Notes: a model not told the origin generated them from the letters alone. DNA of 64,000 nt from Dehalococcoidia bacterium (GCA_963665775.2 CAXXTF010000002.1:896001-960000), one strand, 5' to 3'. Positions 38,655 through 61,315 are shown, counted from the first letter of the stretch. Program-made: numbers and translations.

Positions 38655-38729
38655 TCCCCGGTAGCTCAACGGTAGAGCGGGCGGCTGTTAACCGCTAGGT
38701 TGTAGGTTCGAATCCTGCCCGGGGAGCCA
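38655..38729 (+). tRNA. tRNA-Asn (GTT)
   Basis: TCCCCGG/CCGGGGA, loop CTGTTAA, GTTCGAATCC, CCA. Confidence 0.97.
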
Positions 38730-39119
38730 GTTCACCAGCCAGGAGTTTACCCAGGTCCTTCAGGACCGCGGTGTGAAGATCAGCATGAACGGGAAGGGAA
38801 GGTATGCGGACAACATCTTCGTGGAGCGGCTGTGGCGCACGGTGAAGTACGAGGAGGTGTACCTGAAAGCCTACGCCAGCGCGGGGGAGGCCCGGAGGGA
38901 ACTGGGAGCTTACTTCCGGTTCTATAATGACCAGAGGCTCCATCAGGCCCTGGGATACCGGACCCCAGGCGAGGTGTTCAGCGAGGCCACGGCCCTCCGG
39001 GAGGAAGAGTCGAAGAAGAGGAGGTGTTCACCGGAACCAGTGGTGGTATCATCGGCAGAAGTGGCGGGACTCTCACTTAACTCCGCCCCAATTCTGTCCA
39101 ACTGACTGGGTCCACCTCA
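38722..39119 (+). mobile_element. IS3-family remnant: 3' part of the transposase and right end
   Basis: GSQFTSQEF...ISMNGKGRYADNIFVERLWRTVKYE...YNDQRLHQALGYRTP; terminal CTGTCCAACTGACTGGGTCCACCTCA. Confidence 0.9.
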
Positions 39120-45700: not shown

Positions 45701-46708
45701 TCAATCATTAGAGTTGTGTTCCTTCTCCCCCTGCTCCTCCCCCTTCGCCATGCGGTAGCCGACCCTTGGCTCGGCGAAGAAGTAGGTGGGGTTGCTGGCA
45801 TCCTCGCCCAGCTTGCTGCGGAGCCGCTTCAGGTGCGTGCGGAGCGCCCCCAGATCGTCCGGCCTCTTGGCCCCCCAGAGCCTTCGTAGCAGCTCATCGT
45901 GGGTCAAGACCCGCCCGGCGTTGACCGACAGCTCGTAAAGGAGCTGATACTCCTTGGCCCTCAACGCCACCGGGCGGCCTGCAAGCGTGACCCGGCGCTC
46001 GGCGTAGTCGATGATGAGGTCGCCCAGCACGTAGGGCTCCGGCGGCTCGGATTGGGGATGGCCTCCACTCCGTCGCAGGGCCGCCCTCACCCTGGCCACC
46101 AGCTCGGTCGGCGAGAAAGGCTTGACGATGTAGTCCGAGGCTCCGGCCTCGAAGGCCCGCGCCACCACCCGGTCCCGGCCGTAGGCGGAGAGGAAGATCA
46201 CCGGCACGTCTGAAACGCCAAGGATGTCCCTCATCAGCTCGATGCCGTCGGAGCCGGGCAGCATCAGGTCAAGCAGGACGAGGTGCGGCCGGTTCTCCTC
46301 CATGAGCGGCAGGGCCTCCACCGGGTCGGCGGTCACTATCGCCCTGTAGCCCGCCTCGGACAGCGCCTTCCTCACGTACCGCAGCGTTTCGGGATCGTCG
46401 TCCACCACTAGGATCGACTCCGCCTCCGACTTCTCCTGTCGAGGGCCCTTGGCCGGCCGGTTGCGCTCCACGGCGGCCTCGTCGACCGCCGGTACAGTGA
46501 AGGTAAACCGCGCCCCCAGCCCCGGCCCGTCGCTCTCGGCCCGGATGCGCCCTCCGTAGGCCTCGACTATCCCCTTGCAGATGGCCAGGCCCAGGCCGGT
46601 GTCCCCTCCCGGGTCGTCGTCCTCGCGCTGGGAGAACTTGCGGAACAGGTGTGGCAGATGCTCGGTGGGTATGCCCCTGCCTTCGTCGGCAACCGAGACC
46701 GTGGCCAA
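45701..46708 (-). pseudogene. 5'-truncated hybrid protein: HATPase C-terminus fused to an OmpR-type receiver and wHTH
   Basis: Starts mid-HATPase (VSVADEGRGI, GLGLAICK); ILVVDDD, DLMLPGSDG, DYIVKPF, EPRVGYRM. Confidence 0.85.
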
Positions 46709-46832
46709 GGTGGGTGCCAGCCTGTCGATGGTCGGGAGGCCAACACCAGGCTCGCCTGTCTCATCGAGGGTCCCTGTCGTAAGTGGCTCGGTGGTGGGGG
46801 AATCAGGAAGTCCCGTGGAGTCCTTCGACCGC

Positions 46833-47672
46833 CTACTCCCGCATCATCTCGACGAAACGGTTGCCTATCTGCTCCGCGCCCCGTTGGTAGGAGACCGGCA
46901 CCCACCCCTCCGGGTCCTCGCGGATGCGCCCTGCCGTCTCGGGGTTTTCTTGCACATCCTCCCAAACGAGGGCCCAGCGCCTTTCTGTGGGGAAGAGGCT
47001 CTGTGGCGAGTCCGACGCTCCGCCGTCGTCCGCCGTCATGTCTTCTATCATCGGCCGGTCGTACTCAGAGACCTGCCGAACCGCCACGTTGGCATAGCCC
47101 TCCAAGAAGTCCAGCTCCAGGGCGCGGCTCTCCTCTATGGCATAGCGGTGTATTGCTTTCAGCTCTGCCGCCATCTCCCGGACGCGCCTCACGTGGGCCT
47201 CCCACGCCTCGATCACCCGCTCGTTGAGTTGCACGCCGCTCTCCTTGCCCACGGGCAAGCGCTGCTTTCCCCATACCCCCCAAACGTATTCTCGCCAGAG
47301 TTGCGCGGAGAGTTAAGGGCTTGCCCGGCCTTAGGTAGGAGTTTTCGATGAGCAGGGGGCGTGCGGCCTCATTGAAGACTATCGCCTCCTCTACCTCCAC
47401 CAGCGCCCGCTCGAACCATAGGATACGGTCCCGCATTAGGAGTTCCCTTTCCATGCCGTTTACCAGATGAGTGAGCGTCTCCAAGTTGGACTTTAGGATT
47501 TCGTAGCGGCTTACGATGGCGAGAGCGCCGGTTGCTCCCGGAACAAGTTCTCGATGACCAGGCGGGCCTTTTCCTCCGGCCATCCCGAAAGGGCTTCGAC
47601 TATGTCCTCCAAGCGCTTTTCCGGGGAAAGGGCTTCGACTATGTCCTCCAAGCGCTTTTCCAGTGATCCCAT
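46833..47672 (-). pseudogene. Helical hypothetical gene with multiple frameshifts
   Basis: Three successive plausible reading segments (MGSLEKRLEDIV..., AIVSRYEILKS..., VIEAWEAHVRRV...). Confidence 0.5.
47587..47661. repeat. Tandem duplication, 36-bp unit with 39-bp period
   Basis: GAAAGGGCTTCGACTATGTCCTCCAAGCGCTTTTCC at 47587 and 47626. Confidence 0.95.
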
Positions 47673-47875
47673 AACACCCCCCATCGGCAGCCTCATCGAC
47701 GGCCTCTGACCCTCGCGCACGGGCGCTCGTCGATGCTCATGAATAGACCCCCACGAGACCGAGCTGCTCAAATGCCCGCTCCACCCCTTCCCTTTGCGAG
47801 CGCAGGACCAGGATAGCCCTCTGTCTGGCTGTGAGGCCGTGACTGACCTTCTGGAGGCGGGTTGCAATCGACACG

Positions 47876-48274
47876 CTAGCGTCGCCTCCCTTGCTTGACC
47901 AGGCGCGGCCCCAGCGCCCCTTCCATGGCCGCCAGCCGGCTCTCGAGCTCTCCCTTCTCCAGAAGGTTGACCGCGACCTGCGCCAGATAGGCGAGGGTGC
48001 GGCTGCGGGCGACGCTGTTCTCCAGGCTGAGAGTATCGAGGATCGCCACTTCGAGTAGCCGCCTGATCCGGAGGATGCTTCCCAGCCCCTCGAAGTCGTA
48101 GGCGCCGGAGACCGCCTTCTCCTTGCGGCGCCGCAGCCCGCCCAGGCGCCTGGCCTCGGCCACCTCCTCGGCGTGCTCGGGCGAGTGCATTAGACAGAGT
48201 TCGGCATCGTGGAGCGGAGGTGCCCGGCAAGGGCTGCCGTCCCCTTTGAGGGTGTTGCAGGCCTGAGATGCCAC
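47876..48274 (-). CDS. Mobile-element hypothetical protein with an N-terminal C-C-C-H motif
   Basis: CNTLKGDGSPCRAPP...CLMH, ARRLGGLRR; partial paralog near 55118-55230. Confidence 0.75.
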   Translation of the reverse strand: MASQACNTLKGDGSPCRAPPLHDAELCLMHSPEHAEEVAEARRLGGLRRRKEKAVSGAYDFEGLGSILRIRRLLEVAILDTLSLENSVARSRTLAYLAQVAVNLLEKGELESRLAAMEGALGPRLVKQGRRR

Positions 48275-48364
48275 TATTTGCCACCTCTGCTGACAAGGGG
48301 TGATGGTGGCCTGGAATGAGGCCCAAACGAGTAGGCAGACCCCTGGCGGGGCCTGCCCCTGACG

Positions 48365-48778
48365 CTATTCGGCGGCCGCTGCCAAGCCGTCCGCCCGGTG
48401 CCCGCGGGGGCACTCCGCCGGCGCCCGGTCGTCCGCCACCTCGAAGGCCTCCCCGCAGGCGCTGCAGAAGTATCCGCCGTCCTCCAGACGGCTGACCAAC
48501 CCGTTGCCCGGGTTGGCCTTCCCCTTGCCAGACTTCTTTACCGCCCTCTTCGACTTGGCCTCCTCGTTGCCCGAAACGCTCCAGAACCGCCAGCCGTTGC
48601 AGGCCGTGCCGCCCATCACGGCGCTGCCGGCGGCCGAGGGGCTCTTGAACTCCCGGCCGTCCTCCAGACGGTAGCGTGTGCTCCCATCCCCCTGGACCAG
48701 CTCGGCGGTGTATTCCCGGCCCTTGTAGCGGGCCGCCAGACGCGTGCCCGACCTGAGGTTCCGGTCCGTGATGCTCAT
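48365..48778 (-). CDS. RAMA/DUF2924-like DNA-binding domain with a C-terminal Zn ribbon
   Basis: LAARYKG, FKSPSAAG...NGWRFW; CSAC...CPRGH; GAGGAGGTG RBS. Confidence 0.8.
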   Translation of the reverse strand: MSITDRNLRSGTRLAARYKGREYTAELVQGDGSTRYRLEDGREFKSPSAAGSAVMGGTACNGWRFWSVSGNEEAKSKRAVKKSGKGKANPGNGLVSRLEDGGYFCSACGEAFEVADDRAPAECPRGHRADGLAAAAE

Positions 48779-48913
48779 GCAACACCTCCTCTTGAATTTG
48801 TGCTGTACTACTCACTCTCGTCGGCGCGGAAGTCAACGGGTCGGGGCGCTCACCCCGGCGGTTTCTCGCAACTCCAGGGGTGAGCCACTCACTAACCGGC
48901 GTTAGTGTCGGGT

Positions 48914-49546
48914 TCACTCCGGCCGCTCCTTCTCCGCCCTCTCGCCCGTGAACGCCTCCCAACGGACGATCGCCACCCGGCAGTAGCGGGGGTCCAGCTC
49001 CATCCCGTAGCACCTGCGCCCCGTCCTCTCGGCGGCGATCAAGGCCGTCCCCGAGCCTAGGAACGGCTCCGCCGCGATGTCGTTGGGCTTGCTGCCGTTC
49101 TCCATCGCCCGCACGTAGAGGGAGACCGGCTTCATCGTGGGATGCTGGGGGGAGGACTGGGGCCGGTCTTCCTGCCACACCGAGTCCTCCTTGCGGGAGC
49201 CCTGCCAGCTGCTCTTGCCCTTCCAGCCGTAGAAGATGTGCTCGTGGCGGTAGTGGTAGTGGGAGCGCCCCAGCACCAGCCTGTCCTTCACCCAGATCAA
49301 CCACTGGCGGTGCTCGATGCCGGCGGCCGCGATGGAGGCGCAGAGGGTAGAAATAAGAGGCCCCGGCGGGCAGAACACGTAGGCGTCGCCTTCCAAGGGC
49401 CAGGCGGAAAAGACCTGCGTCCAGAATTCGGCCTGGTCCTGGCCCAGGTCGTCGTTGGCGATGGGACGCCTCCGCTTCCGGCCCCCCGGCTCGTAGGCCA
49501 CGCCGTAGGGCGGGTCCGTCACCAAAAGCGTCGCCGTCTCACCCCC
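48914..49546 (-). pseudogene. 3' half of a beta-class N6A/N4C DNA methyltransferase (ParB part lost)
   Basis: TDPPY, HPTMKPV, EPFLGSGT, GMELDPRYC; paralog of 52217-53257. Confidence 0.9.
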
Positions 49547-49559
49547 TCAAGATTGAGCC

Positions 49560-50164
49560 TCGATTGGCGGCGCCACGGCGATTCTTTTCCACAGAGCACG
49601 ACCACGATCAGGCTGGCTCCCAAAGCGCATGGGACCGCAAGGCAAGTTCGAGGGCGATTCTTTGAGTGGCGTAAGAGGGCTGGCCTGGCGGCCGGAGTCT
49701 ATGACCTCCAGGCCTTCATAGCGGATGGGCAGCCGCGCTCGTTCATCCTGCTGGCCGTCCCCAATGAAGAGGCCGTCAAGGTCTCGTCCGGCCAGGCTTT
49801 CGAGGTTGAGTTCCTCGCCTCAGGTCAGGGCCCGGACGAAGTTCTGGCGTGGCTCCAATCCTGTTATCTGGACGAGGCTGCTTCCTGGCAAACATCAGAC
49901 GAGTTGCTGGCGCTCCTAGCGGAGACCAGCGGCCGGCGTCGCTTCCAGGGCTTTGGTAGCGCATATCAGAGGCCTGACCAGGAAGCCACCGATCCTGAAT
50001 CCCAGCCGTTGGGCCGGGTCTCTGGCGGGTCGGGGAGAGTGAAGCAGGCGGAGATGAGCTGTCCTTTCTGTGGGGGCCGGGTCGAGTTTATCGGCGTCTC
50101 GGTCGGACTCGATTCCACCGAGAAAGCCCAGAAGGGCTATCTATGGCGAGGGCTGCCCCGATGA
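49560..50164 (+). pseudogene. 5'-truncated hypothetical protein with a C-terminal CPFCGG motif (possibly a Rep-like C-terminus)
   Basis: GRRRFQGFG and CPFCGG; stop overlaps the next start; no own start after the junction near 49548. Confidence 0.5.
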
Positions 50165-50367
50165 GGGAAGTGCTAGGCCAACCCGTTGACGGCCCAGGCA
50201 GCGAGGAGCGAATCAAGGGGGTTATCGCCATCCTCGCCGCCGGCCTCGAACGGCTGATGGCCCAGAGGATAACGTCTTCAAATAAGCCGACGGCCGAACT
50301 TGACTTCGGGGATGAGTTAGCGGTTACTACGCACTGCCAGCGGAACGCCGACCGAGAGGAGTGTTAG
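50161..50367 (+). CDS. Small protein upstream of the recombinase (candidate directionality factor)
   Basis: ATGA overlap with the upstream ORF; stop lies 4 nt before the recombinase start. Confidence 0.55.
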   Translation: MREVLGQPVDGPGSEERIKGVIAILAAGLERLMAQRITSSNKPTAELDFGDELAVTTHCQRNADREEC

Positions 50368-50371
50368 AGAG

Positions 50372-52183
50372 TTGGTCTCGGAGGCCCCTACCAGGATACG
50401 CCAGAACGAGGGTAAGCCGCAGCCGGCCCGACGCGTCGGCCTGGTGATGCGGGTTAGCACCGACCGCCAAGCGCTTAACGAGGAGGGCTCGCTCAAGAAC
50501 CAGCTCCAGCGCCTTCGCCAACACGTCGACTACAAACGGGCGGTCGCCGGCGAGGAATGGACAGAGGCAGAGATCTACGAACTCAGAGCCATCTCAGGCA
50601 AGGACTCCCTCCGCAGCCCTGAATTCCAGCGACTGTTCGCTGATATCCGCTCCGATCGCATCAACACCGTCCTCTGCACAGCCCTCGACCGCGTATCCCG
50701 CTCCGTGAAGGACTTCCTTCACTTCTTCGAGTTCATCAACGAGCACAACGTCGAGTTCGTCTGCCTGAAGCAGAACTACGATACGACGACCCCACAGGGC
50801 AGGCTGTTCGTAACGGTCATGATCGCCCTGGCCGAGTTCGAGCGGGAACAAACCTCCGAGCGCACCAGCGAGGCGGCGGCAGCCAGGGCGGAGCGGGGGC
50901 TGTGGAACGGTGGCCGTCTCCTTGGCTATGACCTGGACCCGGACAAGAAAGGGTCCTTGGTCCCGAACCCGGAAGAGGCGCTGCTGGTCAGTTTCGCCCT
51001 CGACGCCTACCTGGAGTGCGGCTCACTCAAGAATACCGCTCAGGCCCTCAACCGGCGTGGCTATCGGACAAAGGCGTATACGTCACGCCGCGACAGACAC
51101 CACCCAGGCAAGGAATTCACCCTTACGTCCGTCCAGTATCTCCTTAAGAACCCCGCTTACATCGGGATGAAGGAGCTTAATAAGAAACGCGGCCAAAGGG
51201 ATTCCAGCTACCGTCTGGTGGACGCCGTCTGGCCCCCCATCGTCGACGAGGCGAAATTCGAGCAGGTCCAGCGTCTTATGAGGGCCAACGGGCAATCCAA
51301 CCACAACGGCTCTCAGCCCGCCCGGCATTCATACGTCCTCAGCGGCCTCCTTCACTGCGGCCGTTGTCACTCCTTGATGGAGGGCAGGTGCGGGACCGGG
51401 CGGCTCGGCTCTCGATATTACTACTACGTGTGTCGCAATAGAGACTGCGGCCTGCGTGTCAGCGCTGACGAGATCGAGGGGGCAACCCTTGGCCGCATTC
51501 GCGAGCTGGCGAGCTCGCCGGACATCCTTGAGCGTCTTGTTAACGAGACCAACGGCAGGATTGCCGGCGAACGGCCCAAGCTGATTGCTCGGCGGGATGA
51601 CCTCGGGAAGAAGCTGCACGATCTCAAGAATCAGGCAGACAAGGTCCTCGTTGAATGGTCGGCTCTCGAAGAGCAGGCGGGAAGAGCCTTCCTCACAGAG
51701 AAGTTGGGGAATTTAGCTCCGCGCCGAAGCGACCTGGAGCGCGGCATCGCCGAAGTCGAAGAAGCCCTGGCGGCTATGGACAGGGAACGGGTGACGGTGG
51801 AGGTGGTTCGGACCGCCCTCGGCGACTTCGGCCGGCTCTACGCCTGCCTCACCCCGTTTGAGCGAAAGGAGCTAATCAAGCTGATACTTCGCCGGGCGGA
51901 AGTCGGCGTCCGCCAGATCGCGCTGGAGCTGTATCCAATTCCATCAACGGAGATGGCGGCGCAGGGCCGTGTACGCTTTGAGGCACCAAACTGGCTCCCC
52001 GAGTCGCTGCCGCAAAGCGTACTGCGCGACGCCTTTGCTATCCGCCTTCCCAGTATAACTGGCTGGGTTCGAAGGGCACGACGCCGATTCGATAGAGCCT
52101 CCAGATCCCAACGGCGTAATGACCCCAGCCTCTGTAGGGCATCTTCTCCTCCTAGGATTACTGTGCCTAAGTTGGGGGGTTAA
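50372..52183 (+). CDS. Large serine recombinase (integrase), complete
   Basis: MRVST catalytic motif, ISGK..R.PEF, LDRVSRS, AEFERE, recombinase domain (LLKNPAYIG), Zn ribbon CGRC...YYVC...C, coiled coil. Confidence 0.96.
   Translation: MVSEAPTRIRQNEGKPQPARRVGLVMRVSTDRQALNEEGSLKNQLQRLRQHVDYKRAVAGEEWTEAEIYELRAISGKDSLRSPEFQRLFADIRSDRINTVLCTALDRVSRSVKDFLHFFEFINEHNVEFVCLKQNYDTTTPQGRLFVTVMIALAEFEREQTSERTSEAAAARAERGLWNGGRLLGYDLDPDKKGSLVPNPEEALLVSFALDAYLECGSLKNTAQALNRRGYRTKAYTSRRDRHHPGKEFTLTSVQYLLKNPAYIGMKELNKKRGQRDSSYRLVDAVWPPIVDEAKFEQVQRLMRANGQSNHNGSQPARHSYVLSGLLHCGRCHSLMEGRCGTGRLGSRYYYYVCRNRDCGLRVSADEIEGATLGRIRELASSPDILERLVNETNGRIAGERPKLIARRDDLGKKLHDLKNQADKVLVEWSALEEQAGRAFLTEKLGNLAPRRSDLERGIAEVEEALAAMDRERVTVEVVRTALGDFGRLYACLTPFERKELIKLILRRAEVGVRQIALELYPIPSTEMAAQGRVRFEAPNWLPESLPQSVLRDAFAIRLPSITGWVRRARRRFDRASRSQRRNDPSLCRASSPPRITVPKLGG
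51989..52001 (-). other. att-like core matching the tRNA-Asn 3' end and flank
   Basis: AACTGGCTCCCCG is the reverse complement of 38720-38732. Confidence 0.75.
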
Positions 52184-52216
52184 GGGTTGCGGATTCAGCA
52201 AGGCGGAGGCGGACGG

Positions 52217-53665
52217 GTGGCGGTGGAAGGCGAGGACGACAACAGAACACATCTCACTATCGAACATGTGGAGCTCGACCGGCTTAAGCCCGACCCCTTC
52301 AACCCTCGACGGATCGCAGAGCAGGATCTCGACGCCCTAACCAGGAGCATCCAAGAATTTGGATTCGTTGACCCCATCATCGCCCGGCGGGAGGACCGCG
52401 CCGTCATCGGCGGCCACCAACGACTGCTGGCGGCAAGGCGTCTGGGCTTGGCCAGCGTCCCTGTCATCTTCGTTGACCTCTCGCCTGAGCAGGCTAAGCT
52501 CCTCAACCTCTCCCTCAACAAAATCAGTGGCGCCTGGGACGAAGAGCTCCTAGCCCGCCTCCTGGCTGAGCTTAACGAGACTCCGAACGTTGACATCACC
52601 TTTTCCGGCTTCGCAGAGGACGAGATCGCCAAGCTGCTCAAGACCTTGGAGCTACGGGAGAAGCGGGAGCGTACCGAGGTGTTCGATTTCGACGCCGCAT
52701 GGGAAGCGGCAACCGCCGATCCCGGCGTTAGGCGGGGAGACATCTGGCTCCTGGGCGACCACCGGCTTATGTGCGGAGACTCGGCCGACAGGGGCGACGT
52801 GTCGCGCCTGATGGCGGGTCAGACGGCGACGCTGATGGTGACGGACCCACCCTACGGCGTGGCCTACGAACCGCAGGGGCGGACGCGCAGGCGTCCCATA
52901 GCCAACGACAACCTAGGCCAGGGCCAGGCCGAGTTCTGGACACGGGCCTTCTCGGGTTGGCCCTTGGAAGGCGACGCCTACGTGTTCAGCCCCGCGGGAC
53001 CGCTTGACCTGACCCTCTGCCGGTCCATCGTGGAAGCGGGCATCGAGCACCACCAGTGGCTGATCTGGGTGAAGGACAGACTCGTGCTCGGGCATTCCCA
53101 CTACCACTACCGCCACGAGCACATCTTCTACGGCTGGAAGGGCAGGACAAGCTGGAACGGCTCCCGCAAGGAGGAGTCGGTGTGGGAAGAAGACCGGCCC
53201 TTAGCTTCCCCGCAGCACCCAACAATGAAGCCGGCCTCCCTCTTCGTTCGGGCCATGGCCATCTTTACCCCTTTCTTTTCACGCCCAAGACTAACATTAC
53301 TCCTGGACCAGTTCTTGGGGGGCAGGTCAATACGAGCCGTGCTTGAAAGCGAGCGTCGGGTCTTCGCAGCGGCTGACATCACTTCCTTCGGAACGATTTG
53401 TGAGAGCGATCCGGTTGAACCTGAGGGTGACTATACCAACGACGAATCTTGTCGCGAGCGGACGTTTGAAGAGTACCTAAATGGGCAGTCTCGCTTGGAA
53501 TTCTACGACGAGAACATGACGGTGATGGATGTGTGGATAGGGGAGACCGGCCTGATCAATAAGATACGCTTTCAGATCCCCCCTGATGAGCATGGAAGGA
53601 TAGAGCAGGTCATCACCTTCGAATATTCAGAGTTTGGTGAGGTAGTGATCGAGCGTCCTGTTTAG
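52217..53665 (+). CDS. ParB-like domain + DNA methyltransferase, truncated near 53257 and fused in frame to an unrelated LppX-like lipoprotein C-terminus
   Basis: NPRRI, FGFVDPII, IGGHQRL, GDHRLMCGDS, TDPPY, HPTMKP; after FVRAM it diverges from the 48914-49546 paralog; ends DVWIG...FEYSEFGEVVIERPV. Confidence 0.85.
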   Translation: MAVEGEDDNRTHLTIEHVELDRLKPDPFNPRRIAEQDLDALTRSIQEFGFVDPIIARREDRAVIGGHQRLLAARRLGLASVPVIFVDLSPEQAKLLNLSLNKISGAWDEELLARLLAELNETPNVDITFSGFAEDEIAKLLKTLELREKRERTEVFDFDAAWEAATADPGVRRGDIWLLGDHRLMCGDSADRGDVSRLMAGQTATLMVTDPPYGVAYEPQGRTRRRPIANDNLGQGQAEFWTRAFSGWPLEGDAYVFSPAGPLDLTLCRSIVEAGIEHHQWLIWVKDRLVLGHSHYHYRHEHIFYGWKGRTSWNGSRKEESVWEEDRPLASPQHPTMKPASLFVRAMAIFTPFFSRPRLTLLLDQFLGGRSIRAVLESERRVFAAADITSFGTICESDPVEPEGDYTNDESCRERTFEEYLNGQSRLEFYDENMTVMDVWIGETGLINKIRFQIPPDEHGRIEQVITFEYSEFGEVVIERPV

Positions 53666-54026
53666 CCCCACCACCCCCACGGCTACAGCTACTGTAGTAC
53701 GAAAGCTGAGGCGAACCGGGAGCTCATTTTCGGCAACGAAGCACCAGAGAATTTAGGCCAACTCATGATTGACCAAGCGATCAAGTGGGCTAGGCTGAAT
53801 GAGTGGCTAATAACAAACTTTCGGGAGATGGTTAGAAGTTCGGTCGAGGGAGAGAAAGATGGCGCACTTGATCACCTGCTCCTGGCGATGCTGTGGGAAT
53901 GGCCTGACTACTCCGTCGAGGAAAATGTCGCATCTCCCCAATCACGGAATCCGGTTTGCAGGTCCTCCGCACATGACGCCCCGCAGGAAGGCCAGACAGA
54001 GCAGGCTGGGGAAGCCAGACGCGGCT

Positions 54027-54659
54027 TCATGCCCCCAGACCCAAAGACGGCTGCCGCGTCATGCCCCAGAGGGGGATACCGTTCGGCAATGTCAACTCCG
54101 CCGTCACCAGGAAGCCGAACCGCTCGTAGTAGCCGAAGTTGTCCGGCGCTGACGTGTCGAGAAATGCGGGCAGGGCGTCGTCATCTATACGCGGAAGCAT
54201 CTGGTTGATGAGGGCGCTTCCCAAACCGGTGCGCTGCGCCGAAGGATCGACACCGATGCCGTTGAGGTACCAGCACGGGCCAGGCGGTTTGAGCGCGGCG
54301 AGCACGGGGGCAAGAGCTTACCGTCGCCGCCAGGCCGGGATGCCGAGCCGGACGGGCGCAGCCCAGAGGCCGGACCGCAACAGCGTCAGAGCACTGTGCT
54401 TGGGTTTTTGGGGTGAACCCCAGATAGCGACGCCCAGCACGGCATCACCGGATCCACCATGGGCGACGTACACGGCTCCGCCGGAGTGGACGCAAGCGCG
54501 GATGGTTGCGCCCCAGACCCAGGGTAGTCTTGCGTGCCGCTGCGCGTCGTTGGGAAGGAGAAACGTGTAGCGGGGAGCATTCGCGAAGGCGTTGGCCATG
54601 ACCCGCGCGGCGGAAGGGATTTGGTTCAGGCGTATCGGGGAGATGAGGGGCCCAGTCAT
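54027..54659 (-). pseudogene. GNAT acetyltransferase interrupted by TAA at 54318-54320
   Basis: AARVMANAF...GVAIW, then in the same frame WYLNGIGVDPSAQRTGLGSAL...LDTS...YERFGF. Confidence 0.85.
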
Positions 54660-54782
54660 GAAAGAATTTTACCTGATCCGTCCCGGGAAGCGGTGTAAGA
54701 GGGCGAGGGTGAGGCGATTGCGATGGAAGCGGCCGGTCGGGGGTCATTGCGCCCCGACATTTGGCTGAGAGGCAATCACCCA

Positions 54783-54977
54783 CTATTCGCCATCCAGCAG
54801 TCCGTTCCGCACGGCCCAGACCGCCATTTCCTGCTTCGAGCCGACGATCAGCTTGCCCTGCATGGCGTAGACGGCGATCCGGATGGTCACCGGCTTGAGT
54901 TCCCTGGGCTCCGCTATCCTGGCGTATGACATGCCCCGGCAGAACGAAGCGAGTATCTCCAGGCCCCTCTCCGTCAC
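54783..54977 (-). pseudogene. LuxR/NarL HTH C-terminal fragment
   Basis: TERGLEIL..FCRGMSYARIAE...TIR...KQEMAVWAVRNGLL. Confidence 0.8.
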
Positions 54978-55117
54978 TCCGCCCAGTCCCTTTTCTCCTC
55001 CCTCCCCGTTCTCCGGGCTCTGCCTCGCCTCCTCCGATTGCAGCCGGTCGGACCGTGGTCAGGAGGACGGGCTACCTCCAGAAGGTGTCGGGGGTGGAGC
55101 GCCGTCCTTGCGTGCCC

Positions 55118-55230
55118 GGCCACCTCCTCGGCGTGCTTGGGCGAGTGCATTAGACAGAGTTCGGCATCGTGGAGCGGAGGTGCCTGGCAAGGGCTGCCGT
55201 CCTCTTCACGAGCTTGCAGACGCGTGGGGT
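55118..55230 (-). pseudogene. Fragment of a paralog of 47876-48274
   Basis: CGGCCACCTCCTCGGCGTGC...GGCAAGGGCTGCCGTCC nearly identical to about 48157-48243. Confidence 0.85.
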
Positions 55231-55442
55231 AACCAACGGCAATCTCTGCTTATCGGGGGCCCTGCTTACCGCGGCCTGGAGCCAAGGCAGACCATGAAGG
55301 TATGGCCCTTCTGCAAGCTCTGGATTGATGGTCTCCTGCGCCGACGTTTGTGGCAGAAGGGCGACCGAGAATGATACATTAGGCTGGTCCTGCAGTAGGG
55401 TCGGCTCCAGCATGTACTCCGGCCTATTTCGAGGGGAAAAGC

Positions 55443-55868
55443 ATGTCCATCCTGATTCGTGCGGCAGCGGCTTATCTGGTTTTGGTGGCAGTAGCGGTAG
55501 CCGTGCTCTTCATTATTACCCCGCTGTACCACCCAGGCGGGGACGCGCCGTTCCCAGAGTGGAAGGTCCTCAACTGGTTCATGGCGGTAGGGATGGTGTT
55601 CACCCTGGTCGCCAGCTACGCAGAAAAGCGGCGTGTCGATGGCGACGGTTCGGCGGACCTGAAGCGCTACTTGGAAGCGAACACGGTTTTCTACGGGACG
55701 GCCGCCGTGTTCATCCTGTTCTTCTGGAACTGGTTCAGCTCTTTGTCTCCCAACAACCAGCCCGACGGACAGCTTTGGATCGTCATCGACACCCTGATGC
55801 CTATCGTAACGGGCGTCACCGGCTGTCGAATGTGGCGCAACGTGGAGGCCTACTTGCCGCGTCCGTAG
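55443..55868 (+). CDS. Four-TM hypothetical membrane protein
   Basis: GAGGGG RBS, four hydrophobic segments. Confidence 0.8.
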   Translation: MSILIRAAAAYLVLVAVAVAVLFIITPLYHPGGDAPFPEWKVLNWFMAVGMVFTLVASYAEKRRVDGDGSADLKRYLEANTVFYGTAAVFILFFWNWFSSLSPNNQPDGQLWIVIDTLMPIVTGVTGCRMWRNVEAYLPRP

Positions 55869-56043
55869 TTGCGAGCTGCACAGCTAGAAAAATGAGCGTT
55901 CGTTGTTATGGGTAGAGGGCTCGCCGCTGACTAACGAAGCCGTACGCCAAGCAGCCTGCTGGACCTCATCGGTTCCTGGATTGAGGCTCTCATTCGTGAC
56001 GACTCATGACAGCCTAAAACACATTCGCTGCTCACGGGAGAAT

Positions 56044-57191
56044 CTATACAGAAGCCGTCTGCAGCGTAGGGTGACCGACGCTCCTGGAACGCCTTCGAGC
56101 CCATCGCTTAAAGGAATGCAGCTCGATCTTGACGACATCCCGAAGTACGCTCTGAGGAACCAGCCCGGGGAGCCAGTCTGGTGGCTCAGAGCGTGAACGG
56201 CTCTGGGCCGCCTCCATTTCTTGGGCCTGAATCGGATACAGCTCCAGCGCGACCTGGCGGACGCCCACTTCCGCCCGGCGAAGTATCAGCTTGATTAGCT
56301 CCTTTCGCTCAAACGGGGTGAGGCAGGCGTAGAGCCAGCCGAAGTCGCCGAGGGCGACCCGAACCACCTCCACCGTCACCCGTTCCCTGTCCATAGCCGC
56401 CAGGGCTTCTTCGACTTCGGCGATGCCGCGCTCCAGGTCGCTTCGGCGCGGAGCTAAATTCCCCAACTTCTCTGTGAGGAAGGCTCTTCCCGCCTGCTCT
56501 TCGAGAGCCGACCATTCAACGAAGACTTTGTCTGCCTGATTCTTGAGCTCGTGCAGCTTCTTCGTAAGGTCATCCCGGCGAGTAACCAGCTTAGGCCGTT
56601 CGCCGGCAATCCTGCCGTTGGTCTCGTTAACAAGGCGTTCAAGGATGTCCGGCGCACATGCAAGCTCCCGGATGCGGCCAAGGGCAGCCCCCTCGATCTC
56701 GTCAGCGCCGACACGCAGGCCGCAGTCTCTATTGCGACACACGTAGTAGTAATATCGCGTGCCGAGCCGCCCCGTCCCGCATCTGCCCTCCATCAAGGAG
56801 TGACAACGGCCGCAGTGAAGGAGGCCGCTGAGGACGTATGAATGCCGGGCGGGCTGAGAGCCGTTGTGGTTGGATTGCCCGTTGGCCCTCATAAGACGCT
56901 GGACCTGCTCGAACTTCGCCTCGTCGACGATGGGGGGCCAGACGGCGTCCACCAGACGGTAGCTGGAATCCCGTTGGCCGCGTTTCTTATTAAGCTCCTT
57001 CATCCCAATGTAAGCGGGGTTCTTGAGGAGATACTGGACGGACGTAAGGGTGAATTCCTTGCCTGGGTGGTGTCTGTCGCGGCGTGACGTATACGTCTTT
57101 GTCCGATAGCCACGCCGGTTGAGGGCCTGAGCGGTATTCTTGAGTGAACCGCACTCCAGGTAGGCGTCGAAGGCGAAACTGACCAGCAGCG
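56044..57191 (-). pseudogene. 5'-truncated inverted paralog of the 50372-52183 recombinase (catalytic domain lost)
   Basis: Near-identical from LLVSFA to LELYPI; homology stops abruptly near 57191. Confidence 0.93.
56163..56177 (+). other. att-like core, 15-bp direct repeat of the tRNA-Asn 3' end and flank
   Basis: GCCCGGGGAGCCAGT identical to 38717-38731. Confidence 0.8.
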
Positions 57192-57975
57192 GTTCTCCTG
57201 GCGATGGGCCGTGCTGCTGGTAGCGCTGGTGGCGGGGGCTTTGGTTTTCGCGGCGTGCGGCGGGTCCGCAGCGCCGACCCCCGATCCCACCGCCGCCCCC
57301 GATCCCACCGCAGCGCCGGCCCCCGATCCCACCGCAGCCCCCGCAATGATGTCTCTGAGCGATATCGACGAGACCACCACGGGGGCCGAACTGATCGCGT
57401 CGCTTTCCGAAGGTGAAGCCGACTGCCTGCGCGCTGCGATAGGGGACGCGAGCTACGAAGCTATGCAGGACCTGACCCTGTCCGAGAGTGCCATGGAATT
57501 CGATACGTTCCCACTGCAATGCCTGGAGCCGGACAACGCCATCGACCTGAGCCTAGCCATGATGTCGCTCCAGGCGGGCGGGCTGTCCGATGATAGCCAG
57601 GCCTGCATCAAGGACGTTTTCGCAGAGCTCGGAGAAGACGAGCTCGGGGTGCCGGGCGAGACGATGAGCGAGACAGACTCCTTGCGCTTCTTTATAACCA
57701 TGCAGCTCTGCCTGACCGACGAAGAAGCGCAAGCCATGTCGGGACCTGTTCCGGAAGAAGACGCATTTCTTTTGCCCTCCCAACTCCGCTGCGTATCCGA
57801 GCAGACGGAACTGGAGAACCTGTTCATCGTCTACCAGGCGTTCGTTGACCTGGAATCGAGCACGGAGCCGTCTACACCATCGCCGGAAATGATGATGGCG
57901 GTGGCCGAGATAATGGCGGCTCAGGAGACCTGCGGCATTCCCACCATCATCCAAGGGGAGGGGTCAACGCCCTAG
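57184..57975 (+). CDS. Cys-rich acidic lipoprotein; native start probably lost at the junction (alternative GTG at 57211)
   Basis: QQRFSWRWAVLLVALVAGALVFAAC lipobox; 3x PDPTAA; repeated Cys-containing helices. Confidence 0.75.
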   Translation, partial: QQRFSWRWAVLLVALVAGALVFAACGGSAAPTPDPTAAPDPTAAPAPDPTAAPAMMSLSDIDETTTGAELIASLSEGEADCLRAAIGDASYEAMQDLTLSESAMEFDTFPLQCLEPDNAIDLSLAMMSLQAGGLSDDSQACIKDVFAELGEDELGVPGETMSETDSLRFFITMQLCLTDEEAQAMSGPVPEEDAFLLPSQLRCVSEQTELENLFIVYQAFVDLESSTEPSTPSPEMMMAVAEIMAAQETCGIPTIIQGEGSTP

Positions 57976-57987
57976 GCGGCGGCTCGG

Positions 57988-58770
57988 GCTGATGCGCCGT
58001 ATCGATGAGCTGCACCTTGAGTATCCGTTTGCAGGCAGTAGGATGATGCGAGGCCTGCTCCGCCAGGAGGGACTCCCCTCCGGGCGGAGACACATCGCCA
58101 CACTGATGCGGCGGATGGGCATCGATGCGCTGTACCGGAAGCCCAACACCAGCCAGCGACGCCCCGGCCATACTGTGTATCCGTACCTGCTGCGCGGGCT
58201 TGAGGTGAGCAGGCCCAACCAGGTGTGGGCAATGGACATCACGTACATTCCGATGGCCAGGGGGTTCGTGTACCTAGCCGCAGTGATGGACTGGCATAGC
58301 CGCAAGGTGCTGGCCTGGCGGGTATCGGTCACAATAGACACAGGCTTCTGCGTGGAGGCGCTCGAAGAATCCCTGGGACGCCACGGCGCGCCGGAGATAT
58401 TCAACACAGATCAGGGAAGCCAGTTCACAAGTGACGCCTTCACCGGCCTGCTGAAAGCCAATGGGATCCAGATCAGCATGGACAGGAAGGGAAGCTGGAA
58501 GGATAATGTGTTCGTCGAACGGCTGTGGAAGAGCGTCAAGTATGAGGAGATGTACCTGAGAGCCTACGAATCGGTCCCGGAAGCCAGAACTGGACTCGGG
58601 CGGTACTTCGAGTTTTACAATGCCGGACGGCCCCATTCGAGCCTTGGGGGAATGACGCCGGACCAGTTCTTTGACAGAGTGCCTGCCGAGTCCGCGGCGG
58701 CCTAACGCACGGCAGCGTGATTCCACTTATCAAACCGGGCAGCGCTGTTCAGACAAACGAGACCACCTCT
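57988..58770 (+). mobile_element. IS3-family remnant: most of OrfB and the right end
   Basis: LMRRIDELHLEYPFAGSR, WAMDITY, NTDQGSQFTS, DNVFVERLWKSVKYE; terminal CTGTTCAGACAAACGAGACCACCTCT. Confidence 0.93.
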
Positions 58771-59584: not shown

Positions 59585-61315
59585 ATGCGCGCACTAATCA
59601 CAGTAACCCCGATCATCGCTCTTGTCCTGTCAATTGCTGCCTGCCAGGGAGACGCTGGGCCTCCCGGGCCGCAGGGCCCCGCGGGCGCACCCGCCCTCGT
59701 GGACGAGGCCACCGTCGCGTCTCTCATTGAGCAGATGCAGGAGCAGTTGGACACGAGTTATACCACGGCGGCCGTACCTCCCAAGTCGACGCCCGGGGCC
59801 TACACCAAGTTCCTAGTAGAGGACGCCATCAGCAGATACGAATCGGAAGGACTCGATGCCACCGTCGCCTACTACAACACCAAGGAGAGCATCGACGACC
59901 AGTGGTATGTCTTCATCATCGATGAGAACCAGACCATCATCGCTCATGCCCCCAACCCCGACCTGGTAGGCAAGCACGTCTCCCAGGCTCTCGGACCCAA
60001 CTCCTACCCCACGGGGTCCGCCGTCGCCGCCTCCGCCGACCAGGACGGCGCCTGGTTCGACTACACCTACCCCAATCCCGCCTCTGACGTTGTGCAGACC
60101 AAGCACTCCTGGGTGATCATCCACGACGGCATCACCTTCGGCTCCGGCTGGTACGAACGCGGCCCCGGCAAGTCCGATGCCCCCGCCTACACCAAGGCCT
60201 TCGTGCGGCAGGCCATGAACCTCTACGTCGCCCTCGGCCTGGAGGAGACCGTCGCCTACTACAACGCCAGGGAGAGCATCGACGGCCAGTGGTATGTCTT
60301 CATCATCGATGAGAACCAAACCATCATCGCTCATACCCCCGACCCCGACCTCGTGGGCAAGCACGTCTCCCAGGCTCTCGGACCCAACTCCTACCCCACC
60401 GGGTCCGCCGTCGCCGCCTCCGCCGACCAGGACGGCGCCTGGTTCGACTACACCTATGCCAATCCCGCCTCTGGCGTTGTGGAGACCAAGCACTCCTGGG
60501 TGGTCATCCACGACGGCATTACCTTCGGCTCCGGCTGGTACGAACGCGGCCCCGGCAAGTCCGATGCCCCCGCCTACACCAAGGCCTTCGTGCGGCAGGC
60601 CATGAACCTCTACGTCGCCCTCGGCCTGGAGGAGACCGTCGCCTACTACAACGCCAAGGAGAGCATCGACGGCCAGTGGTATGTCTTCATCATCGATGAG
60701 AACCAAACCATCATCGCTCATGCCCCCGACCCCGACCTCGTGGGCAAGCACGTCTCCCAGGCTCTCGGACCCAACTCCTATCCCACCGGGTCCGCCGTCG
60801 CCGCCTCCGCCGACCAGGACGGCGCCTGGTTCGACTACACCTATGCCAATCCAGCCTCTGGCGTTGTGCAGACCAAGCACTCCTGGGTGATCATCCACGA
60901 CGGCATCACCTTCGGCTCCGGCTGGTACGAACGCGGCCCCGGCAAGTCCGACGCCCCCGCCTACACCAAGGCCTTCGTGCAGCAAGCCATGAACCTCTAC
61001 GTCGCCCTCGGCCTGGAGGAGGCCGTCGCCTACTACAACGCCAAGGAGAGTGTTGACGGCCAGTGGTACGTCTTCATCATCGACCAAGACGGCTACACGA
61101 TAGCCCACCATAACCCGCAGTTTCGAGGGCGTGATCCCAGCCTCCGTGTGGACGCCACGGGGTATTTCTATGGCGACGACTTGCTGAGCGCCACTGAGGC
61201 GGGTCATTGGGTCGACTATGTGTTGCTCAACCCGGAATCGGGCGAGAACCGTCAGAAACACACTTGGATTGTGCGGCATGACGGGCTGCTATTTGGCTCG
61301 GGCTGGTATGAGTAG
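59585..61315 (+). CDS. Lipoprotein with a short collagen-like stretch and four tandem single-Cache-like domains
   Basis: LSIAAC, GPPGPQGPAG, 4x WYVFIID...IAH...(F/V)DY...NP...KH(S/T)W..HDG..FGSGWYE. Confidence 0.88.
   Translation: MRALITVTPIIALVLSIAACQGDAGPPGPQGPAGAPALVDEATVASLIEQMQEQLDTSYTTAAVPPKSTPGAYTKFLVEDAISRYESEGLDATVAYYNTKESIDDQWYVFIIDENQTIIAHAPNPDLVGKHVSQALGPNSYPTGSAVAASADQDGAWFDYTYPNPASDVVQTKHSWVIIHDGITFGSGWYERGPGKSDAPAYTKAFVRQAMNLYVALGLEETVAYYNARESIDGQWYVFIIDENQTIIAHTPDPDLVGKHVSQALGPNSYPTGSAVAASADQDGAWFDYTYANPASGVVETKHSWVVIHDGITFGSGWYERGPGKSDAPAYTKAFVRQAMNLYVALGLEETVAYYNAKESIDGQWYVFIIDENQTIIAHAPDPDLVGKHVSQALGPNSYPTGSAVAASADQDGAWFDYTYANPASGVVQTKHSWVIIHDGITFGSGWYERGPGKSDAPAYTKAFVQQAMNLYVALGLEEAVAYYNAKESVDGQWYVFIIDQDGYTIAHHNPQFRGRDPSLRVDATGYFYGDDLLSATEAGHWVDYVLLNPESGENRQKHTWIVRHDGLLFGSGWYE
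59790..61090 (+). repeat. 387-bp near-perfect coding tandem repeat, more than 3 copies
   Basis: GTCGCCTACTACAAC at 59864, 60251, 60638 and 61025. Confidence 0.95.

Follow-up and report, generated by a model that had tools for sequence, protein, structure and literature searches.

Copies of a large serine recombinase with a putative attachment site inside its own gene point to an element family specific for the 3′ end of tRNA-Asn

Introduction

Integration at tRNA genes is classically attributed to tyrosine integrases. The large serine integrases of phages such as Bxb1, phiC31, A118/LI, and SPbeta act at phage attachment sites (attP) of 40 to 50 bp, typically imperfect dyads around a central dinucleotide that share a short identity with the bacterial site (attB); to our knowledge, their targets are protein-coding or intergenic, and an attP inside an integrase open reading frame (ORF) has not been described. 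In fuselloviruses of the SSV1 type, the tyrosine-integrase gene is cut in two, and in mycobacteriophages with integration-dependent immunity it is the repressor gene that is cut. Here, a 64,000-nt stretch of a Dehalococcoidia bacterium genome (G000:C2:896001-960000; 2.35-Mb assembly in two contigs), referred to as the window, was analyzed, in which copies of a large serine recombinase gene lie downstream of a tRNA-Asn gene. The recombinase very probably defines an element family that is specific for the 3′ end of tRNA-Asn and carries its attP inside the 3′ end of the recombinase gene, the window holding decayed tandem junctions of such elements. Positions without a contig prefix are counted from the first letter of the window.

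The closest precedent is provided by the Dehalococcoides islands at ssrA, the transfer-messenger RNA (tmRNA) gene. They are reported to encode DsiB, a 540-residue serine recombinase whose gene always overlaps attL with its 3′ end and has its stop codon outside the island; the islands lie in tandem downstream of the target and have ParB and Mom genes in their module, and the authors speculated that the circular form may be required for dsiB to be complete and fully functional (PMC3146451, McMurdie et al. 2011). The present locus is similar in that the recombinase lies at attL with its 3′ end over the att site and the antisense strand of the target 3′ end, that tandem copies downstream of a single-copy target are marked by repeats of its 3′ end, and that ParB and DNA-modification genes are present. 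This analogy had been drawn in a first-pass annotation of the window, and the att site overlapping the integrase, the tandem layout, and the parB/modification genes were all matched; the target is different. Here tRNA-Asn takes the place of tmRNA, crossover is proposed to occur in the acceptor 3′ strand rather than the T-loop, and the core is 10 to 15 bp compared with 20 bp. Unlike in the ssrA islands, where ParB is accompanied by a Mom homolog, ParB forms a fusion with an N6/N4 methylase here, and there is a divergent operon with a sigma-like factor and a primase-polymerase (Prim-Pol). In place of a DsiA-like small serine recombinase, the ORF upstream of the recombinase encodes 74 aa without a family match, and no resolvase-only gene was found among the module genes scanned. 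The family also spans several phyla.

With the phage serine integrases, the family shares the resolvase/recombinase/zinc-ribbon domain set, a dyad attP of ∼50 bp, and a short attP-attB identity, but its attP is coding on both arms and its target is a tRNA. As in SSV1 and the mycobacteriophages, attP lies within coding sequence, so that integration alters the encoded protein; unlike in those systems, which both depend on tyrosine integrases, only a C-terminal extension past the catalytic and DNA-binding domains is exchanged. Tyrosine-integrase islands inserted at genes for tRNA or tmRNA likewise use the tRNA 3′ end, regenerate the gene, form tandem arrays, and place the integrase beside the tRNA (in part after PMC12884075); the enzyme superfamily and mechanism differ, and the core here is short, with no evidence of arm-type sites. 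Literature searches returned no description of a tRNA-targeting serine recombinase, although supplements and TIGER/Islander may hold such targets, and the string "trna" has 0 occurrences in the main text, so far as available, of two versions of a large recombinase survey. The Dehalococcoides tmRNA case was the sole serine-integrase precedent found.

Recombinase copies share a core with the tRNA-Asn 3′ end

Copy A (Table 1) is intact, encodes 603 aa, and has the domain order of a large serine recombinase, with an N-terminal resolvase catalytic domain (Resolvase PF00239, 4.8e−32, residues 26 to 177) followed by a recombinase domain (PF07508, 3.7e−18) and a zinc beta-ribbon (Zn_ribbon_recom PF13408, 1.4e−7). 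The phrog_95 integrase family covers residues 6 to 516 (1.6e−113), and every invariant residue of a 58-sequence alignment, including R27 and S29, is retained. The adjacent integrase is thus a serine recombinase rather than a tyrosine recombinase. Copy B, which lacks the catalytic N-terminal domain, is 89% identical to copy A residues 198 to 571. Copy C, just outside the window (C2:963093-964913), shows 69% identity and is interrupted by two stop codons; over a collinear stretch spanning the recombinase, att, and ParB, A and C share 76% DNA identity.

The proposed target closes a Leu-Gln-Asn tRNA cluster and, of the 50 tRNAs identified in the assembly, is the only one for Asn. The 15-mer GCCCGGGGAGCCAGT (38717-38731) recurs exactly in copy B, itself a minus-strand gene (56163-56177), and, beyond the window, in copy C (C2:963269-963283), and copy A matches over 13 nt (51989-52001). 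The final GT of the 15-mer (38730-38731) falls past the CCA end, which leaves B and C each with 13 nt identical to the tRNA proper and A with 10 nt; the 15/15 match noted in the first-pass annotation recurs exactly, with two of its bases outside the tRNA. The annotation had also seen that copies A and B carry the tRNA end, reverse-complemented, as an in-frame W-L-P; this was confirmed, and copy C has it as well, at residues 541 to 543 in all three (N540 to P543 were located in the 603-aa protein). The residue before W-L-P is N or D, and (L)(V/L)PQSVLRD follows, the PQSVLRD tail being present in both copies as described. Likewise, the gene bodies of A and B are near-identical and diverge at the att site, with 95% identity over 993 nt, 79% over 75 nt around the core, and no similarity beyond. 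Copy B is a mosaic whose body resembles A and whose att region resembles C, with a unique end to its tail that diverges from that of copy A after PQSVLRD.

In G043, G008, G038, and G052, which belong to the same family or order, similarity to the recombinase stops at residue 543/544, on top of the point where an opposite-strand tRNA-Asn has its 3′ end. Named genome records yielded no relative when queried with one protein alone and 66 loci when queried with the 58-sequence alignment. Of these, 43 had a match reaching at least query residue 496; one had too little sequence after the gene, leaving 42. At 26 of the 42, a complete tRNA-Asn faces the gene from the other strand, its 3′ end coinciding with W-L-P, and at 7 more a tRNA 3′-exon-like sequence missed by ARAGORN follows W-L-P, bearing out the predicted linkage of homologs to tRNA-Asn. 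The other tRNA targets among the 42 were tRNA-Arg(GCG) at two loci and tRNA-Gln(CTG) at one. The 23 loci set aside (L052, L060, L063, L065, L067 to L070, and L072 to L086) were truncated or <30% identical; a tRNA-Asn was found near L063 and L070 and a tRNA-Ala 400 nt from L072. No adjacent tmRNA was identified at 16 loci scanned with the tmRNA option of ARAGORN.

The ends of the encoded proteins are in keeping with the junctions. From a protein database, 440 proteins at an E value of ≤1e−20 were found among the candidates scored. Of the 120 best homologs, 60 have WLPGQDSNLQPSG-like ends, 19 stop ≤2 residues from W-L-P, 26 have other tails, and in 15 the motif was not matched by the pattern used, some of these being truncated or variant. 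The first two groups agree with the earlier suggestion that integration would swap the integrase C terminus for a tRNA-derived one. The common stop codon, read from the sequence, is the complement of the anticodon-loop bases U35-U36-A37. IMG/VR returned 80 loci, and of the six close ones examined, L095 and L097 abut tRNA-Asn and L098 ends in tRNA-like sequence at its contig end.

The core is the center of a coding dyad

In all three copies, the core forms the exact center of a 50-bp imperfect dyad around TGGCT/C, copy C scoring 18/25 like copy B, and 0 to 1 of 20,000 shuffles reached the scores of the three copies. Between the dyads of A and B there are two double changes, both compensatory, located 8 and 19 positions away from the center. 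The left arm encodes ...RSEPP(N/D), the center encodes W-L-P and is identical to the ...GGGGAGCCA end of the tRNA, and the right arm encodes ...VPQSV, so that the first residues of the shared tail are the right half-site. Independent attP-like sites from metagenomes (L202 and L207) also scored 18/25, and attR-like sites scored 5 to 9/25. Because of three independent lines, the dyad, the integrated attL in relatives, and the attR product described below, the core region of the copies is taken to be an att site, and the attP-like junction recognized in the first-pass annotation is strengthened by the dyad centered on it.

The alternative, that W-L-P is a conserved protein motif resembling the tRNA by chance and the copies are ordinary paralogs without an att site, is hardly credible. 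The three copies are homologous and hence not independent, and a single 15-mer match is not negligible at genome scale, albeit by a rough estimate; a hand calculation rather than tool output put the chance expectation for one 15-mer in the window at ∼0.007. When the 71-nt tRNA 3′ half with its flank was searched against the whole genome on both strands, exact matches of at least 15 nt elsewhere than in this tRNA were confined to the two recombinase copies and the T-arms of other tRNAs (two matches). What we consider decisive is position rather than match length: the recombinase genes of relatives end on the tRNA-Asn itself at exactly the W-L-P codon. Further, attR-like junctions carry the core and tail without the recombinase body, and the core is fixed at the DNA level rather than being a protein motif with variable codons. 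TGGCTCCCC is kept in all attP-like junctions displayed save L062, which has TGGCTCGGC, as well as in L100 (35% protein identity) and in 22/22 metagenome tail loci, and the Leu codon of W-L-P is always CTC in the junctions displayed.

L100:6805-8480, on a 21.8-kb IMG/VR contig, encodes a 35%-identical recombinase with an attP-like junction AACTGGCTCCCCAAG, the tail NWLPKFPVLLTAVR, and no tRNA; this contig may be a free element.

Integration would exchange the C terminus of the recombinase

According to the proposed mechanism, elements would insert at the 3′ end of the single tRNA-Asn gene by means of the large serine recombinase, with strand exchange at the central TC of TGGC-TC-CCC, the predicted crossover, which corresponds to G71-A72 of the tRNA. 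Integration would regenerate the tRNA and leave the recombinase gene convergent with it, reading into its antisense strand, and the integrated protein would end ...WLPGQDSNLQPSG at a stop complementary to U35-U36-A37. The original tail (∼60 residues here and ∼80 with a helix-turn-helix [HTH]-like end in many relatives) would move to attR with the ParB-methylase operon. Excision or a tandem junction would reunite body and tail, copies A, B, and C being such rejoined junctions in an array subsequently broken by deletions, an insertion sequence (IS3) fragment, and one inversion (copy A).

As phrog_95 ends at residue 516, W-L-P lies ∼25 residues beyond the canonical fold, and the integrated protein would keep all known domains; with every canonical recombinase domain retained, the tail-less protein is probably still active. 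The tails fall into several types: 60 aa in A and C, HTH-like of ∼80 aa, LLDLFSN of ∼45 aa, and a unique one in copy B. Eight long-tail proteins, 44 to 64% identical over the tail to the first of the eight, share WLPxLV(S/P)QSV.RD.F...LPSL and a distal W..LL..G.VKNRAELARR.GV(T/S)RARVTQVLG. The A and C tails are shorter and lack the distal block, with 195 nt from W-L-P to the ParB-methylase start versus 358 nt in L206.

A metagenome scan with the tail alignment gave 28 loci, of which 22 distinct ones were examined; left out were L195, L197, and L198, which repeat the L194 flank, L210 with 21 nt upstream, and L216 and L218 without W-L-P. Sixteen of the 22 had no upstream recombinase similarity and a dyad of 5 to 9/25 and were classed as attR-like, these representing fewer lineages, as L194/L196/L201 have one flank and L212/L213 another. 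A recombinase body was found upstream of the tail in L200 and L207, and ARAGORN identified no tRNA in the 12 tail loci scanned. An open tail of 73 to 120 codons is present in 21/22 loci, L219 being cut by its contig end. Thus, integration appears to split the recombinase gene and leave the tail alone at attR-like junctions, and the maintenance of an intact tail apart from the body, although no formal test of selection, speaks for the importance of the rejoined full-length gene.

However, the overlap of att and gene could be real and yet have no function, with the ORF simply reading through att and the tail-less protein being a working enzyme in both directions. We give this explanation a sizable chance, somewhat below even. 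It accords with the position of W-L-P beyond the canonical fold, the varied length and class of the tails (those of this genome lack the HTH-like part), and the different frame in which more distant relatives enter the tRNA, and the same trivial explanation was raised for dsiB in the Dehalococcoides report (PMC3146451). It accounts less well for the conservation of the first ∼25 tail residues and the distal block, in proteins with no more than ∼50 to 70% tail identity and partly well past the 25-bp right arm, and for the open tail of at least 73 codons in 21/22 metagenome loci even without the body. A regulatory role for the C-terminal swap is put forward tentatively. Equally speculative is its extension to a built-in integration-state sensor, in which only the circle would encode the full integrase and couple the ParB-methylase/RAMA/CCCH operon to the integrase promoter. 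If so, integration would leave a tail-less enzyme of different directionality or stability and a methylase operon silent until the next excision, and the same logic may cover a serine-recombinase superfamily at the CCA ends of tRNA-Asn, tRNA-Arg, tRNA-Gln, and tmRNA in several phyla. In either case, the family would offer a natural experiment on the C-terminal extension of a serine integrase, with bearing on directionality control and on integration tools in uncultivated phyla.

The window as part of a proposed decayed tandem array

At ∼C2:985,698, a flank without recombinase similarity is followed by an 11-nt core, an open tail WLPGFVSQSVLRQSFP..., and then ParB-methylase and CCCH genes on the same strand, a structure we interpret as attR. 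The tRNA-Asn, the cores of B and C, and this putative attR have the same orientation within ∼51 kb, so that repeats of the target 3′ end stand at window position 56163, at C2:963269, and, in the 11-nt form, at ∼C2:985698. Copies B and C have the order tail-core-integrase, which is the product of tandem integration between two elements. The copies in the window are therefore best read as attP-like junctions of a decayed, partly inverted tandem array that would extend from tRNA-Asn to attR ∼51 kb downstream. The window contains the older, more damaged part of the array, and no copy in it is a complete element; the unit of copy A has an intact recombinase and tail and has lost the sigma and primase genes.

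The last element (C2:963,283-985,698; 22.4 kb) is nearly whole. It starts with recombinase C, a small ORF, a divergent sigma-like gene, and a gene for an 868-aa protein with a DnaG-type zinc finger, followed by ParB-methylase, CCCH, and the 302-aa gene X. The cargo encodes SnoaL/spondin-like, PQQ propeller, Kelch, thiolase, pirin, glyoxalase, alpha/beta hydrolase, and T1RH-like proteins, and a second, inverted X-CCCH-ParB-methylase block (81.5% identical over 2.2 kb) precedes the tail and attR.

Instead of tandem integration, homologous recombination, IS rearrangement, or secondary-site insertion could have carried intact attP sites along. The inversion of copy A, the IS3 copies and fragments on either side of the area, the inverted methylase repeats flanking A and C, and the mosaic nature of copy B would all suit such an origin. 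On the other hand, the cores of B, C, and attR have the tRNA orientation within 51 kb downstream, in the order that tandem integration gives; G043 has the same pattern, with attL and an attP remnant 34.6 kb away in the same orientation; and tandem islands are described for the ssrA system (PMC3146451). This alternative is accordingly considered improbable.

Several points weigh against the proposed mechanism and array. An IS3 fragment stands where the integrase is expected, at the first junction beside tRNA-Asn. Copy A has the opposite orientation to that expected from the tRNA, an arrangement that tandem integration cannot yield, and a later inversion must be assumed. The crossover dinucleotide is deduced from symmetry alone, and the tails of 6 of the 42 loci are not tRNA-derived and show no clear dyad (L024 and L038 reach 10/25 at most, off-center). 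The HTH nature of the long tail is only suggested, by matches of the distal block that were all below threshold (KORA, E value 0.056 to 0.13; YdaS, 0.019; Sigma70_r4, 0.01; NCBIfam mob_myst_A, 0.029; and in PDB, MarR-type AdcR, 0.77, and LacI, 0.94), and the tails of this genome lack that part. The case for a native flank at attR depends on a short CTATTCC(T) motif common to relatives. Comparison of the flank right of attR with the tRNA-Asn flanks of relatives gave no usable synteny, the only shared gene being a duplicated one at C2:979.8 kb and 354 kb, and the right boundary consequently rests on the attR structure and this motif. Finally, 12 public runs cover part of the stretch as assembled contigs; over 46500-58500, no circle, empty attB, recombination joint, or inversion was seen in these short and fragmentary contigs, which speak neither for nor against mobility. 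The few joints in them had sides of 21 to 56 nt or matched the paralogous copy C.

The IS3 fragment (Table 1) is fused to the tRNA end at what is plausibly a microhomology deletion point or a pseudo-att site. In six IS3-like copies of the genome, the DNA coding for DQGSQFT contains GG(A/G)AGCCAGTT, which overlaps the att core. As a separate observation, this DNA (CAGGGAAGCCAGTTCAC) holds the reverse complement of the att core and was located at 38719-38745 and 58421-58480 in the window and in five further copies in G000.

The duplicated gene with its flanks lies inside the island (C2:979560-980313) and 600 kb away (C2:354050-354760), and its homolog (∼73 to 78% amino acid identity by tblastx) is found directly downstream of tRNA-Asn in G002 and G017. 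Inverted ParB-methylase/CCCH/X blocks are located at C2:968896-971091 and C2:982865-985055, and recombinase copies A and C likewise lie between the same inverted pair of methylase genes. An explanation of the flipped copy A by the 443-nt inverted methylase repeats alone was dropped, as copy C has this inverted pair and is not flipped.

Element gene module

The features in the window are listed in Table 1. The CCCH fragment downstream of the copy B tail has the polarity of copy B, and the gene X remnant (46888-47448) has 67 to 68% DNA identity to C2:961719-962299 and C2:982863-983191. The 3′ part of the methylase gene forms an 85% inverted repeat with 52816-53258, and the 5′ part of the ParB-methyltransferase gene starts 4 nt after the copy A stop in the same frame. 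A ParB-methylase following att and tail on the same strand was also found at copy C, at attR, and in metagenome loci L201, L206, L210, and L213. The 74-aa ORF has 40 to 45% identical counterparts, placed alike, in copy C and in G043, G047, and L095 and may encode a directionality factor or regulator. No Pfam or PHROG family was identified for the 74-aa, CCCH, CPxC, and X ORFs.

Table 1. Positions of features of the tRNA-Asn-associated elements in the window
Feature	Position	Strand	Basis or remarks
tRNA-Asn(GTT), proposed chromosomal target	38655..38729	+	ARAGORN; CCA included; last 10-13 nt are the shared core
IS3-family transposase, 3′ fragment	38730..38990 (end approximate)	+	Sequence, translation; fused in frame to tRNA end as GSQFTSQEF
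Gene X remnant, ∼300 aa when intact, follows CCCH gene	46833..47583	-	Repeat similarity
CCCH-motif protein, 132 aa, conserved element gene	47876..48274	-	62-65% identical to G043 and G038 element genes
RAMA-domain protein, C-terminal zinc-ribbon-like motif, 137 aa	48365..48778	-	Pfam RAMA 9.5e-11, above cut-off
ParB-N6/N4 DNA methyltransferase gene, 3′ part, ParB part missing	48914..49544	-	Pfam N6_N4_Mtase 7.6e-19
CPxC-motif ORF	49601..50164	+	Not a conserved module gene
74-aa ORF directly upstream of recombinase	50143..50367	+	Positional candidate
Large serine recombinase copy A, intact, 603 aa, attP (full-tail) form	50372..52183	+	Pfam, PHROG
Putative attP of copy A, 50-bp imperfect dyad, predicted central TC 51996-51997	51972..52021	+	17/25 mirrored positions pair; 1/20,000 shuffles reach this
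ParB-methyltransferase gene, 5′ part, homology ends ∼53258	52187..53258	+	Pfam ParB_N 4.1e-11; phrog_498 methyltransferase 9.4e-96
CCCH gene, 90-nt fragment, downstream of copy B tail	55117..55206	-	97% direct repeat of 48157-48246
Recombinase copy B, catalytic N-terminal domain missing	56044..57201	-	Pfam Recombinase and Zn-ribbon only
attP-like site of copy B, 50-bp dyad, predicted central TC 56171-56170	56146..56195	-	18/25 pair; 0/20,000 shuffles reach this

In the integrated elements of relatives and in element C, a divergent operon adjoins the recombinase, with genes for a sigma-70/extracytoplasmic function-like factor, Prim-Pol, and conserved hypothetical proteins, then ParB-methylase, RAMA, and CCCH. 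Module genes were searched for at 61 loci (two of which may be one contig in two collections), the counts being limited by 10-kb flanks. The sigma-like factor was found at 27 of the 61, ParB-methylase at 13 to 14, Prim-Pol at 12 to 13, two hypothetical genes at 12 to 13, CCCH at 4, RAMA at 2 to 3, and the 74-aa ORF at 3; all operon genes are on the strand opposite the recombinase. The CPxC ORF was found at one locus (by tblastn), also on the strand opposite the recombinase. The first-pass annotation had reconstructed a module running from a CPxC protein and a small ORF through the recombinase and att to the ParB-methylase, RAMA-like, and CCCH genes; the order from the recombinase onwards is real for this lineage, but CPxC is not conserved, and the sigma/Prim-Pol operon had been missed.

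Distribution and relation to DsiB

Record titles place the loci in Dehalococcoidia/Chloroflexota, Omnitrophota, Planctomycetes, Elusimicrobia, a PVC-group bacterium, Thermodesulfovibrionia, and others. Together, these point to a large serine-recombinase clade dedicated to the tRNA-Asn 3′ end, with a backbone of sigma-like factor, primase-polymerase, and ParB-methylase and with sister lines at tRNA-Arg and tRNA-Gln. The family would account for genomic islands beside tRNA-Asn in these genomes and for many annotated recombinases ending ...WLPGQDSNLQPSG, and it provides a precise, testable attP/attB pair with a predicted crossover dinucleotide.

In G112 and G135, small single-contig genomes of the same class, a recombinase ORF of 559/563 aa overlaps the tmRNA 3′ end by 68 to 80 nt, and from this layout we infer it to be DsiB. 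These recombinases are ∼24.5% identical to copy A over 400 to 430 residues, which does not indicate close kinship. In the same two genomes, a different recombinase runs 64 nt into tRNA-Asn in another frame (24.7% identity by tblastn and 27 to 28% by another search), and in two further genomes of the class, G326 and G234, recombinases (32 to 33% identity) also run into tRNA-Asn. The tRNA-Asn family is not DsiB but works like DsiB, and both look like branches of a wider serine-recombinase group that enters tRNA-like genes at the CCA end.

The tRNA-Arg(GCG) sisters (L035:3090-3166 and L039:3828-3904) have 52% identity and the tail VWRPRQDSNL..., the tRNA-Gln(CTG) sister (L066:11598-11671) has 39% identity, and all abut their tRNA at the same CCA-end position. 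Target switching seems to have taken place within the family.

Among the seven loci with exon-like sequence, five were tested, and an Rfam group I intron lies beside the exon in four of them; the fifth contig ends too early. The introns (RF00028, 71 to 81 bits, minus strand; L034:2019-2396, L041:1928-2137, L043:3036-3267, and L056:1902-2113) are directly 5′ of the tRNA-Asn 3′ exon, in records whose titles name Omnitrophota, Planctomycetales, and PVC group. For L056, a 5′ exon can be recognized immediately upstream of the intron.

Relatives also have incomplete copies, 34 to 42 nt long, of the tRNA-Asn 3′ end (T-arm and acceptor), at G030:C23:1757-1790, C23:8781-8814, and C61:15590-15623 and at G034:C2:833179-833220, G010:C45:43-77, and G033:C11:44065-44099. 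They are longer than the core of the present family, which suggests that other integrative elements also use tRNA-Asn.

Coding repeats elsewhere in the window

Two further repeat arrays were identified within ORFs of the window. A 387-nt unit is present three to four times at 59798-61083 (74 to 96% identity) within a 578-aa ORF, and a 141-nt unit is repeated at 41245-41949 within a 1,406-aa ORF that starts just after tRNA-Asn.

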